Shown here: positions 17,723 to 24,980 of the stretch, piece after piece
Layout: each line of letters starts with the position of its first letter
Numbering within the stretch: the stretch's first letter is position 1
DNA from: Alphaproteobacteria bacterium
Lineage (GTDB): Bacteria; Pseudomonadota; Alphaproteobacteria; GCA-2731375
DNA length: 24,980 nucleotides
Direction: 5' to 3'
Assembly (NCBI GenBank): GCA_030746635.1
Contig: JASLMH010000067.1
Location: 1 to 24,980 of the forward strand
Program-made: the position numbers and the translations under genes
Notes under the pieces: generated by a model
What the model was told of the DNA's origin: nothing
The model's database searches: none
What the model saw: the letters and a program-made list of their open reading frames with translations, nothing else

Positions 17723-18409
17723 CTAGCGGTTGCGCAGCGGCAGCTTGTCCAGATAGGCCAGGACGTTCTCCAGCGGTTCCACGTCGCCGAACTTGGCGTC
17801 GATATCGAACAGGTTCCACTCGACGACGCCGGCCACCCGGTCGCCGACCGCCTCGCGCACGACGATCGGGCGGAAACCCTCGGCGATGGCATCCTCCACC
17901 GTGTGGCGGACACAACCGGCCATGGTGACGCCGGTGACGATCACCGTGTCGACGCCGGCGGCGCGCAGGAAGCCGGCCAGATAGGTGCCGTGAAAGGCGC
18001 TGGCCCGCTTCTTGATGATCACCTGCTCGTCCGGGCGCGGGGCGATGCGGTCGTCGATCTGCACCGCCTCGGTGCCGACCTGTAGGACCTCGGCCGGGAT
18101 TTTCAGATGCCACAGGCCCATGTCGGTGTTCGGGCCCTGGGTTACCTCGTAGGCGGTCGAGGTATAGACGATGGGGATGCTCTTCTCCCGCGACGCCGCC
18201 AGCAGGTCCTGCACCGCCGGGATGATCACGTCCATATCATCGCAGGTGAAGGCGTGGCCCGGCCGGGTCCAGGCATTCGCCAGATCGATATTGATCAGCG
18301 CCGGCCGCTCGCCATAGCCGATGCGGCGCTGGAAGCCGCGCGATTGGTAGAGTTCGCTGTCGGCGGAAAAGATCTTCTCCAACGCTTCCTTCAATTCGCT
18401 GCTGGTCAT
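17723..18409 (-). CDS. Isochorismatase-family cysteine hydrolase (N-carbamoylsarcosine amidase / maleamate amidohydrolase-like).
   Basis: D-K-C catalytic arrangement: INIDLANAW, KKRASAF, VTGVTMAGCVRHTVEDA. RBS GAGGTGG 6 nt upstream. Confidence 0.85.
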   Translation of the reverse strand: MTSSELKEALEKIFSADSELYQSRGFQRRIGYGERPALINIDLANAWTRPGHAFTCDDMDVIIPAVQDLLAASREKSIPIVYTSTAYEVTQGPNTDMGLWHLKIPAEVLQVGTEAVQIDDRIAPRPDEQVIIKKRASAFHGTYLAGFLRAAGVDTVIVTGVTMAGCVRHTVEDAIAEGFRPIVVREAVGDRVAGVVEWNLFDIDAKFGDVEPLENVLAYLDKLPLRNR

Positions 18410-21587: not shown

Positions 21588-22229
21588 CTAGCTGTTGCGT
21601 TTGCGGACGTCGTCCAGGTAGCCCAGCACCTCGTCCAGGGTGACCACGTCGGCATAGCGGCGGTGGACGTCGGTCAGGTTGGCGACGTGCGGTCCCTCCT
21701 CGACGTCGCCGACGCAATCCTCGGGCACCGCCACGCGATAGCCGTAGGAAAAGGCGTCGATGATCGAGGCGCGGATGCAGCCCGACGTGTTGCAGCCGGC
21801 GATGATCACGGTGTCCACCCGCTCCTTGACGAAGAATTGCGTGATCGCCGTTTGGAAGAAGATCGACGGCCCGGTCTTGCAATAGACCACGTCGTAGTCG
21901 CGGTCGTAGATGCGCGGCTCCAGTTCGGTGCAGGGATGGCCGTGGTGGAATTCCTCCACCACCGGCGGGATTTTCCAATACGGCGCGTCCCGGGCCGAAC
22001 TGTAAGCGGTGTAGCAGGTGGCCACGGGTATGTTGCCGGCCCGGGCCAGTTCCAGCAGGCGGGCGGTATTTTCCACCGCCCGCTCCACCAGTGGCCGGCC
22101 GCCCAGCGGGAATTCGCTATCGGTGAAGCCGCGCTGGAAGTCGACCACGGCGATCGCCGGCCGTTCGCCGAAACCGATGCGATGGGCCTCGAAGCCGATT
22201 TGCTTGTAGATATCGCCAGCGTCGCTCAT
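21588..22229 (-). CDS. Isochorismatase-family cysteine hydrolase, paralog of 17723..18409.
   Basis: Shares RIGFGERPAIAVVDF, IPVATCYTAY, …VDTVIIAGCNTSGCIRASIIDA… and the C-terminal LDEVLGYLDDVRKRN with the other copy. Confidence 0.85.
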   Translation of the reverse strand: MSDAGDIYKQIGFEAHRIGFGERPAIAVVDFQRGFTDSEFPLGGRPLVERAVENTARLLELARAGNIPVATCYTAYSSARDAPYWKIPPVVEEFHHGHPCTELEPRIYDRDYDVVYCKTGPSIFFQTAITQFFVKERVDTVIIAGCNTSGCIRASIIDAFSYGYRVAVPEDCVGDVEEGPHVANLTDVHRRYADVVTLDEVLGYLDDVRKRNS

Positions 22230-23014: not shown

Positions 23015-23680
23015 TCAGACTTGGCGCAGCCGGTTTCGACGGACCCTGTACAGGCCCATCAGACCGGCCAGTAGCGTCGCCAGCGGCGCCGGCTCGGGTA
23101 TCACCAGGGTGCCGCTGACCTGGATCGAATAGGTCCGGGGGTTGGTGTCCCAGACCGTACCGGCGAAGAAGGCGCCGCCGTTCAGATCGTCTATGCTGCC
23201 CTTGAATTCCCCATCCAGCCGGGCCTGGGTGATCGGCTCCCAGGGCCAGTCATGGTTGTTGATGGTCTCGCCACCGTCACTGAAGGCGATCGACGGCTGG
23301 GTCGGTTCCGGGTACCACCAGGCAATGATGTCGTCGGTCTCGACCGTGATCGGACTGGCCAGGGCAAAGGTGTTGACCCCCAGGCTGTTCACCGCCTCCA
23401 AGCCGCTCTCGCCGACGAAATCCCAATTCGCGCCGTTATCGCGATAGATCAGCAGTTTCACCTCGCCGCCGGTGGCGTTGGCGTAGATACTCCAGGAATC
23501 GATCTCGCCGTTGCCGCTGATGCGGCCGTTCAGGTCGAAGAACAGAACGCCGTCGGCGCCGTCCAAGTAGGGCCGGGCAATTACGTCGTTGCCGCCCAGG
23601 ATGGTCGAGGCCAGCGCCGGAACCGGTTGAACCAATAGGGCGAGAGCGACAAGCACCGCCCGTGTACGATGAAAAGTCAT
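23015..23680 (-). CDS. PEP-CTERM sorting-domain protein (predicted exosortase substrate) with an N-terminal signal peptide.
   Basis: Start MTFHRTRAVLVALALLVQPVPALA (AGGAGGGAG upstream). C-terminus …VIPEPAPLATLLAGLMGLYRVRRNRLRQV is PEP, then a hydrophobic helix, then an Arg-rich tail. The upstream TTG extension of the track ORF was rejected. Confidence 0.75.
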   Translation of the reverse strand: MTFHRTRAVLVALALLVQPVPALASTILGGNDVIARPYLDGADGVLFFDLNGRISGNGEIDSWSIYANATGGEVKLLIYRDNGANWDFVGESGLEAVNSLGVNTFALASPITVETDDIIAWWYPEPTQPSIAFSDGGETINNHDWPWEPITQARLDGEFKGSIDDLNGGAFFAGTVWDTNPRTYSIQVSGTLVIPEPAPLATLLAGLMGLYRVRRNRLRQV

Positions 23681-23769: not shown

Positions 23770-23792
23770 ACCATGCAAGTTTTGTGCCAACC
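23770..23792 (-). promoter_or_regulatory. Sigma-54 (RpoN) -24/-12 promoter driving the PEP-CTERM gene.
   Basis: The minus strand reads TTGGCACAAAACTTGCATG, a perfect TGGCAC-N5-TTGCA, about 90 nt upstream of the ATG at 23680. Confidence 0.6.
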
Positions 23793-23993
23793 AAGAAGCT
23801 TGGGGAAAATCAATGGCTTACACCCGGGCCATCACGGCAAGAACAGGGAATCTGTAAAAACCACCGACACTACTGGTGACTCTTCGGCCATCGGCGCCCG
23901 TTTCGGGAAACTTGCCTGGCAGCCTGAGCCCGGCCTAGGCTCGCCTCCGGACGATGCCCCAGGGGCACGAGATGACAATGGGAGAGCCGAGGC

Positions 23994-24647
23994 ATGGTGG
24001 AAATCAGCTATCCGGCGGACTGGCGCGATATACCGCCCGAAAACTGGTCCAAGATGCGCATGACACCCGAAGCATACACGGCGATGCGGGACGAGCGGCT
24101 GCGACGGGAGGCGGCGGCGCCGGCGGTGGGCGACCCGGCGCCCGATTTCCATCTGGAACGGCTGTCGCCCGAAGGTCGGCGCACGGGCCAAATGTTCCGC
24201 CTGTCCGAAGGGCGGGGCCGGCCCATCGCCCTGGTCTTCGGCTCCTATACCTGACCGCCTTTCCGCATTCAGGCCGTGCGCCTGAACGAGATCGCCGCCA
24301 CCTACCGGGAACAAGTGGATTTCTATTGCGTCTATATCCAGGAGGCACATCCGGACGATGGCTGGCAGGTGCAGCACAACATCGACGACGGCATCATCCA
24401 CGACCGGCCGACCAGCATCGAACAACGCGCCGAACTGGCGGAAGTCTGCGCCCTGCGCCTGAACATGAAAATGCCGATGCTGCTCGACGACATGAGCGAC
24501 CAGGCGGATCGCCTGTATAACGCCCTGCCGGAACGGCTGTACCTGATCGACGCGGATGGCGTCGTTCGGTTCAAGACGGTGGCGGGGTCGATGGGCTTCG
24601 ATCCGGAAGCCTGGACCGCGGCAATTGCCGCCCTGATCAAAGGTTAG
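23994..24647 (+). CDS. Iodothyronine deiodinase-family thioredoxin-fold protein with an in-frame TGA (24252-24254) at the active-site position. Candidate selenoprotein (Sec). The track splits it into ORFs 23994..24254 and 24276..24647.
   Basis: Both track ORFs are in the same frame, 21 nt apart. Read-through gives …RPIALVFGSYT-U-PPFRIQAVRLNEIAATYREQVDFYCVYIQEAHPDDGWQV…LYNALPERLYLIDADGVVRFKT. This matches deiodinase motifs (FGSCTUPPF…VIYIEEAHASDGW…LYAALPERLYII…). Conservation continues through the 21 nt between the two ORFs. Confidence 0.6.
24268..24286 (+). other. Candidate bacterial SECIS-like hairpin 13 nt downstream of the in-frame UGA.
   Basis: UUCAGGC-CGUGC-GCCUGAA. 7-bp stem, 5-nt loop containing GU, with the loop about 21-25 nt after the UGA. 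Confidence 0.35.
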
Positions 24648-24650
24648 CCG

Positions 24651-24839
24651 TCAGGGACGGTCGTTCCGTAGGCGGATCAAACTGCCGATCAGGCGCACCA
24701 GGAGTGACTTGGCGGACCCATCGTCGTAGTCCCAATCCCCTCCGTCGCAATCGTCCAGCATGAACAGCAGCGCCTTGTCGCCATGGCGGTCGACGTAATC
24801 GCGGGCGGTGTGCGCCAGGTCGGCATCGTCGGCGGTCAT
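24651..24839 (-). CDS. Small acidic hypothetical protein (62 aa), sigma-54-dependent.
   Basis: Start MTADDADLAHTARDYVDRHGDK with GGAGG 8 nt upstream. The track ORF extends to the window end, but that extension overlaps the promoter. Confidence 0.45.
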   Translation of the reverse strand: MTADDADLAHTARDYVDRHGDKALLFMLDDCDGGDWDYDDGSAKSLLVRLIGSLIRLRNDRP

Positions 24840-24959
24840 GGCCTCACGCCTCCGCGAAGGCGCCGGACGGGCGGGTCCGATACCTGAAATCGGTTGGATC
24901 GTCGTTGAAAAAAGCCATCTGGCCGGAATTCCCAAGATTGCACCAACAACTTGCCGAAT

Positions 24960-24980
24960 GCCGTGCAAGAGCCGTGCCAA
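24960..24980 (-). promoter_or_regulatory. Sigma-54 -24/-12 promoter upstream of the 62-aa gene.
   Basis: The minus strand reads TTGGCACGGCTCTTGCACGG, a perfect TGGCAC-N5-TTGCA. It lies at the window edge, about 120 nt upstream of the ATG at 24839. Confidence 0.55.

Follow-up and report, generated by a model that had tools for sequence, protein, structure and literature searches.

A predicted PrsR/sigma-54 PEP-CTERM box promoter upstream of a 62-codon orphan reading frame in an uncultured marine alphaproteobacterium

Classical sigma-54 promoters of the NtrC/NifA type, such as nifH and glnHp2, work by IHF-assisted looping: the activator binds some 80-100 nt upstream, and an IHF site lies between its binding site and the -24/-12 element. 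For proteobacterial PEP-CTERM genes, Haft et al. (2006, BMC Biol 4:29; PMC1569441) described the "PEP-CTERM box", a predicted PrsR enhancer combined with a sigma-54 promoter. Its motif 1, of 17 nt, has the 3' end TTTACA and is sometimes repeated; a spacer with a mean of 62.8 nt (SD 10.6) separates it from a 17-nt sigma-54 motif 2, and the leader that follows has a mean length of 71 nt (range 23-221) (PMC1569441). These promoters normally drive single genes and have long leaders, the gene downstream usually encodes a PEP-CTERM protein, with published exceptions, and the phylogenetic profile of the box matched those of the sigma-54 activator response regulator PrsR, the kinase PrsK and the TPR protein PrsT (PMC1569441). 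For one gene with a predicted enhancer of this kind, pepA of Aquincola tertiaricarbonis RN12, transcription is RpoN1-dependent and the start has been mapped (PMC9850573).

Here we describe a promoter, P2, which lies at the edge of a 24,980-nt stretch of DNA (the window) from an uncultured marine alphaproteobacterium and is a clean, fully assembled PrsR/sigma-54 PEP-CTERM box. P2 has the three-part layout in common with the classical NtrC/NifA-type promoters, whereas its activator site, TGTCGGT-N5-TTACA (TGT-N11-ACA), is neither the NifA site TGT-N10-ACA nor an NtrC site. With pepA it shares the TGGCAC -24 box and a predicted enhancer upstream (PMC9850573); pepA, however, is a betaproteobacterial gene with a flocculation PEP-CTERM target that was characterized by experiment, while P2 is described from sequence alone and faces an orphan open reading frame (ORF).

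The likeness to the PEP-CTERM box is closer. P2 shares the TGT...TTACA motif (17 nt, with one departure), the spacer, here of 62 nt, the sigma-54 motif 2 with its -24 GG and -12 GC, and a long stretch of 124 nt ahead of the start codon. It occupies a non-coding position in a large intergenic region, apparently heads a single-gene unit, and adjoins a bona fide PEP-CTERM gene that has the same box. It differs from the usual box in that the product it serves, which has neither a signal peptide nor a PEP/TM/Arg tail, is no PEP-CTERM protein, in that motif 1 ends in CTTACA, and in that the cognate prsK, prsR, prsT and exosortase genes are not found in the 44 kb around it. Since the architecture matches that of Haft et al. 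and recurs in our genome scan, we regard P2 as a bona fide member: judged by its sequence, it is one of the known PrsR/sigma-54 PEP-CTERM box class, and the promoter is no new kind of system. On balance, we favour the reading that P2 is a complete PrsR/sigma-54 enhancer-dependent promoter, that it would transcribe a 62-codon ORF, and that it would switch together with the PEP-CTERM gene.

Architecture and recurrence of the two promoters

The window edge cuts the P2 regulatory region exactly at the -24 box and leaves the remainder beyond it. The missing upstream DNA was supplied by L001 and L007, which are identical in sequence here. The features of P2 and of the second promoter, P1, are as follows.

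24964..24980, minus strand: P2 -24/-12 sigma-54 element TTGGCACGGCTCTTGCA, read from the sequence, with GG at 24978-24977 and GC at 24967-24966
L001 7961-7973, extrapolated to window 25010..24998, minus strand: P2 IHF-like site TAAGTTATTGATT, which matches YAANNNNTTGATW
L001 7913-7929, extrapolated to window 25058..25042, minus strand: P2 PrsR-type motif 1 TGTCGGTTTTCCTTACA, 17 nt, in the upstream sequence
24840..24953, minus strand: predicted 5' leader of P2, about 114 nt, placed by promoter geometry
23774..23790, minus strand: P1 -24/-12 sigma-54 element TTGGCACAAAACTTGCA, an exact consensus match that serves the PEP-CTERM gene
23808..23820, minus strand: P1 IHF-like site TAAGCCATTGATT, which matches YAANNNNTTGATW and starts 31 nt before TGGCAC, as in P2
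23853..23869, minus strand: P1 PrsR-type motif 1 TGTCGGTGGTTTTTACA (upstream activator site), 63 nt before TGGCAC
23015..23680, minus strand: PEP-CTERM protein gene, 221 aa, with a signal peptide and the tail ...IPEPAPLATLLAGLMGLYRVRRNRLRQV

The P2 element fits the extended sigma-54 consensus YTGGCACGR-N3-TTGCW at all specified positions. A preliminary description of this DNA had reported a perfect sigma-54 promoter at the window edge, and the statistics bear it out: exact matches to TGGCAC-N5-TTGCW number two in the window (24979..24964 and 23789..23774, both on the minus strand) against 0.04 expected, and none of 100 shuffles of the window contained two or more. When one mismatch is tolerated, the window has three matches compared with 0.68 expected. 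P1 and P2 are the sole exact sigma-54 matches in the reconstructed 44-kb contig, which also has no copies of the 17-nt site other than theirs.

The two promoters can be aligned element by element. They share the activator site TGTCGGT-N5-TTACA, which ends 62 nt (P2) or 63 nt (P1) before the TGGCAC of the -24 box, and their motifs 1 are identical at 13 of 17 positions. Motif 1 of P1 agrees with the published 17-nt motif ending in TTTACA and with the 62.8-nt mean spacer (PMC1569441). In P2, C replaces T in this end, for which the family strongly prefers TTTACA; it is the single departure at a strongly conserved position. The P1 and P2 units lie 1.2 kb apart and are expected to switch on together, because the same three elements recur at the same spacings. 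Since this arrangement is also the known PEP-CTERM box architecture and is found again in other genomes, the co-regulation with the PEP-CTERM promoter that had been suggested for P2 is now well supported. The last ~35 residues of the PEP-CTERM protein itself gave weak C-terminal matches to four PEP-CTERM NCBIfam models, all below the cut-offs.

We rejected the possibility that P2 arose from P1 by recent duplication. Outside the motifs, P1 and P2 have an identity of 0.40, compared with 0.28 ± 0.055 for unrelated pairs of the family, and the excess comes mostly from the IHF site.

TGTCGG occurs three times on the same strand within 93 nt upstream of P2, at extrapolated window positions 25058, 25131 and 25145 (L001 7913, ~7840 and ~7826), with spacings of 14 and 73 nt; P1 has one copy. 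The two extra copies, 73 and 87 nt upstream of the P2 17-nt site in the scan of the 44-kb contig, may by their sequence be additional activator half-sites.

The distance that normally separates a start site from the -12 GC places the predicted transcription start of P2 at ~24953 (minus strand). The ATG follows the end of TTGCA after 124 nt (about 120 in the preliminary description), within an intergenic region of 328 nt between a divergent CitE-like lyase gene and the 62-codon ORF. A structured leader or riboswitch at P2 was considered and rejected, the fold of the leader being ordinary (z = 0.25) and a search of Rfam giving no match.

Recurrence was assessed by scanning 596 Gb of genomes with the composite pattern TGTCGGT-N5-TTACA-N(55-70)-TGGCAC-N5-TTGC. 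The scan returned at least 116 matches, compared with about one by chance (our estimate, from 22 specified bases). As the pattern was derived from P1 and P2, conservation at the fixed positions is not judgeable from these matches, and both the choice of the downstream ORF and the test for a PEP-CTERM tail relied on heuristic regular expressions. The matches listed are nearly all from Proteobacteria and relatives, and 94 of these 116 have a spacer of 62-64 nt. An IHF-like TAAnnnnTTGAaa is also part of the family consensus, where its offset equals that of the sites in P1 and P2. A PEP-CTERM-type tail was seen on the downstream protein at 61-66 loci among the matches listed, with 19 further loci truncated and left unscored; by the strict pattern the tail is missing in 36 of 97 determinable loci, at least six of which have variant tails on inspection.

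The box thus also fronts genes that do not encode PEP-CTERM proteins. In Sphingomonadales and allies, the same promoter class is followed by a conserved mini-protein of 35-56 aa with a single TM segment and a glycine zipper, for example MPQGPHLAHSQPGQRGKRLWLWMGLSLGTAGGLLAGWLISG (loci L012, L023, L028, L034, L038, L041, L064, L075, L093, L098, L102 and L122). Its sequence and position suggest a small protein of the PrsR regulon that has escaped annotation. Since such mini-proteins are encoded directly downstream of the box, PrsR-box regulons would include small proteins. Like them, the ORF behind P2 is short, is not of PEP-CTERM type and directly follows the same promoter class; they form a conserved membrane family, however, whereas its product is predicted to be soluble, acidic, unrelated and not conserved. 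Together, P2 and the Sphingomonadales mini-protein genes suggest that the PrsK/PrsR regulon extends beyond what its name conveys.

In a metagenome scan with a lineage-specific pattern, four loci were found, none from the present organism. L133 3060-3278 (minus strand; JGI contig Ga0181579_10000359) carries a PrsR-box/sigma-54 promoter with the same IHF-like site, TAAGnnATTGATTT, and, 78 nt on, a 72-aa ORF. The product of this ORF is acidic and helical-looking, has no Pfam match and is unrelated in sequence to the 62-aa product.

Location of the regulator and proposed activation

The preliminary description had suggested that the activator gene might lie just beyond the window, which was not borne out: none lies in the 10 kb past the edge or anywhere in the 44-kb contig. 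Genes for a sigma-54 activator, rpoN, an exosortase, prsR, prsK and prsT are all lacking from these 44 kb, and no GAFTGA-type motif occurs there in any frame. The 10 kb past the edge encode the divergent CitE/HpcH-like lyase, EamA fragments, a globin, a guanylate cyclase, an unknown protein, GGACT and SnoaL proteins, two short-chain dehydrogenases, a DUF2889 protein and a molybdopterin oxidoreductase, while the window and 9 kb beyond its opposite end contain metabolic and transport genes. As the 44 kb hold no activator gene, the gene for the regulator of P1 and P2 is likely to lie in another part of the genome. The PEP-CTERM gene and the two boxes lead us to infer that PrsR and RpoN, PrsK, PrsT and EpsH are present in the organism.

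We propose the following mode of activation. Once phosphorylated by PrsK, PrsR (an NtrC-family response regulator with its gene elsewhere) would bind the 17-nt TGTCGGTTTTCCTTACA, and IHF would bend the DNA at TAAGTTATTGATT. The activator could then contact the sigma-54 RNA polymerase held at TTGGCACGGCTCTTGCA and open the promoter. Transcription would proceed from ~24953 on the minus strand through the 114-nt leader into the 62-codon ORF, and the P1 and P2 units would both be on when the PrsK/PrsR signal is present. In this scheme, the binding of PrsR and IHF, the transcription start, the translation of the ORF and the function of its product are predictions from the DNA.

The 62-codon reading frame and its origin

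The promoter part of the locus is textbook for the PEP-CTERM system, and a mild surprise lies only in the status and origin of the ORF. The features on this side of P2 are:

24651..24839, minus strand: acidic orphan ORF of 62 aa (MTADDADLAHTARDYVDRHGDK...), with an ATG start and a TGA stop, found in its own population only
24849..24853, minus strand: Shine-Dalgarno-like GGAGG, 9 nt before the ATG, read from the sequence
23994-24647, plus strand: deiodinase-like thioredoxin-fold gene (PF00837) with an in-frame TGA at 24252-24254, within ...FGSYT-U-PPF...

A longer, 109-aa version of the ORF starts at the TTG of P2's own TTGGCAC and adds 47 codons. That this N-terminal extension is unreal, as had been supposed, is confirmed by its flat GC profile by codon position (0.62/0.62/0.55, against 0.70/0.41/0.81 in the 62-aa part) and by a codon-usage log-likelihood ratio (LLR) of -0.75 bit/codon. 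The 62-aa ORF scores +0.46 bit/codon, which is at the 13th percentile of the real genes in the window (0.67 +/- 0.21) and is reached by 1.4% of spurious ORFs of 60-120 aa. The signal is uneven: codons 1-27 have 0.94 bit/codon and codons 28-62 have 0.09.

The 62-aa product has 14 Asp but lacks Glu altogether, which is an unusual kind of acidic bias for a genuine protein. Sequence inspection found neither a signal peptide nor a PEP/TM/Arg tail, and the product does not match the PEP-CTERM domain model TIGR02595; by these sequence features it is no exosortase substrate. A single-sequence AlphaFold2 prediction has three helices with a pLDDT of 64.7, a model too weak to use, and a Foldseek search with it against the PDB gave nothing below E = 7. 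The product would probably be a cytoplasmic, Asp-rich, three-helix peptide.

The exact 62-aa protein is encoded on at least 16 marine metagenome contigs, Tara Oceans and JGI included, and on three more, giving at least 19 in total. The ORF is called in every assembly that has it, identically on at least these 19 contigs, and the nine places retrieved are from separate samples. A 98%-identical form occurs in the MAG GCA_030744475.1 ('Alphaproteobacteria bacterium'). Outside this population, homologues were found neither by a word-indexed search of 5.8 billion clustered proteins nor by an exhaustive phmmer search of 1.84 billion representative proteins. No Pfam or NCBIfam model matched even at E <= 10, and there was no sequence match in the PDB and no plasmid or phage match by tblastn. 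The preliminary description had said that the small protein belongs to no recognisable family, which agrees with these empty searches.

Window and MAG differ at one position in 10,330 aligned nt, so few that dN/dS is without power. This sole difference, at 24736, is a non-synonymous change within the 62-aa ORF (GAT>GTT, Asp35Val). Apart from it, the Tara, JGI and Logan samples show a nearly clonal population.

The nearest relatives, L126 and L128, were traced via the deiodinase-like gene (76-77% protein identity). Their gene order is upp, the deiodinase-like gene, EamA or lipocalin, radical SAM, short-chain dehydrogenase(s) (adh_short) and DUF2889, and at this locus they have no PEP-CTERM gene, lyase, small ORF or sigma-54 motif. 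Because the relatives are without them, both PrsR-type units are lineage-specific insertions flanking the deiodinase-like gene. The earlier suggestion that the small protein may be a new member of the regulon is weakened: the cis-element places the ORF in the regulon, but the ORF is not conserved. Lack of conservation in related genomes had been named as a refuting result, and this is what was found, the ORF being absent from the syntenic relatives and confined to its own population in the exhaustive search.

An EamA-type transporter gene is intact beside the deiodinase-like gene in L128. Here about 200 of its middle codons are missing, and ORFs of 61 and 42 aa (L007 8479-8664 and 8661-8789; extrapolated window about 26050-26360) are its C- and N-terminal leftovers. 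As the EamA gene is reduced to two fragments, we consider the region a rearrangement hotspot.

These observations bear on the strongest alternative to our preferred reading, namely that P2 is stranded in front of a gene remnant. The box would then be real and might still fire, while the first ~27 codons of the ORF would be what is left of the radical SAM gene, joined to 35 codons that are open by chance. Besides the relatives' gene order, which lacks the PEP-CTERM gene, the lyase and the small ORF, and the EamA pseudogene fragments that adjoin the locus, this is suggested by a resemblance between ORF residues 3-27 (DDADLAHTARDYVDRHGDKALLFM) and residues 51-75 of the radical SAM protein, just before the enzyme's GGEP motif. 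The best family member (P0143) has 12 of 24 residues identical and a score of 65. Smith-Waterman scores are 53 with L128 and 49 with L126, compared with at most 29 for other neighbour proteins (24 proteins compared); 53 was reached by 5 of 20000 composition-preserving shuffles, and none of 1490 stop-free 62-aa windows in six frames of the 44-kb contig exceeded 47. The end of the similarity coincides with the drop in codon usage from 0.94 to 0.09 bit/codon, and the likeness extends in frame for seven residues ahead of the ATG.

Set against this, the segment scores only -2.2 bits with a profile HMM built from 120 family members, similarity to the radical SAM gene was not found at the DNA level, the CxxxCxxC region is unrecognisable, and there is no Pfam match to PF04055. 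The fragment would also need to be inverted relative to its position in the relatives, and an ATG, a Shine-Dalgarno sequence and an intact three-part promoter in register exceed what a random remnant needs. We therefore regard a stranded promoter in front of a remnant as possible, if doubtful. A radical SAM fragment as the origin of the ORF start, taken by itself from the sequence comparison, has about one chance in three; with that origin, the ORF would be a very young gene or else a chimera without function.

By its sequence, the ORF may be a young gene or a remnant, and not a new protein family; the first stretch of an antisense transcript is a third thing it may be. It is unlikely, on our estimate, that the peptide is an expressed, lineage-specific addition to the PrsK/PrsR regulon derived from the radical SAM fragment, for instance as a cytoplasmic modulator of the response and not a surface protein that is sorted. 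Expression of the ORF would make it a tractable example of a very young gene under a tightly regulated promoter; without expression, the locus would present a stranded regulatory module in a rearrangement hotspot.

The deiodinase-like gene and the wider neighbourhood

The ORF stop (24653..24651) and the end of the convergent, plus-strand deiodinase-like gene (24647) are 3 nt apart, with no terminator-like site between the two genes. The only downstream terminator-like site is inside the deiodinase-like gene and is at chance level, with two sites found and 2.0 expected. Since the genes are convergent and no terminator separates them, transcripts from P2 probably run antisense into this gene.

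Judging from its reading frame, the deiodinase-like gene very likely encodes a selenocysteine protein. Gene callers split it at the in-frame TGA into pieces of 86 and 123 aa. A 7-bp hairpin, UUCAGGC-CGUGC-GCCUGAA (24268-24286), lies 13 nt after the UGA in a SECIS-like position, with an unremarkable energy (z = 0.59). Among the homologues listed (120 of 237), nearly all are called as C-terminal fragments of about 121-133 aa, sizes consistent with a split at the same codon.

It could be proposed that interference is the role of P2, its transcript lowering expression of the selenoprotein gene when PrsR is active. The convergence of the genes (ends at 24651 and 24647), the lack of a terminator between them and the flanking of the selenoprotein gene by both PrsR-type promoters are in line with this. 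We nevertheless consider such a role improbable: no positive evidence for it was found, the ORF has its own Shine-Dalgarno sequence and coding-like codon usage, the syntenic relatives keep the deiodinase-like gene without such a promoter, and long-leader single-gene units are what this promoter class normally produces (PMC1569441). Least probable is that the sigma-54-like string of P2 is coincidental and without promoter function, for the P2 region is indeed known from one population only, in which L001 and L007 are identical, but the excess of exact matches, the 12-base upstream motif at 62 or 63 nt in each promoter (a per-promoter chance of roughly 2e-7), the identical offset of the IHF-like site and the intergenic placement of P1 and P2, each facing an ORF, speak strongly against it.

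In the wider neighbourhood, three paralogues of the isochorismatase family lie within ~30 kb (17723-18409, 21588-22229 and L130 147-779, all on the minus strand). They are interleaved with genes for an amidase, an amidohydrolase, a hydantoinase/oxoprolinase and a uracil phosphoribosyltransferase, which suggests a neighbourhood for the salvage of nitrogen heterocycles or amides.
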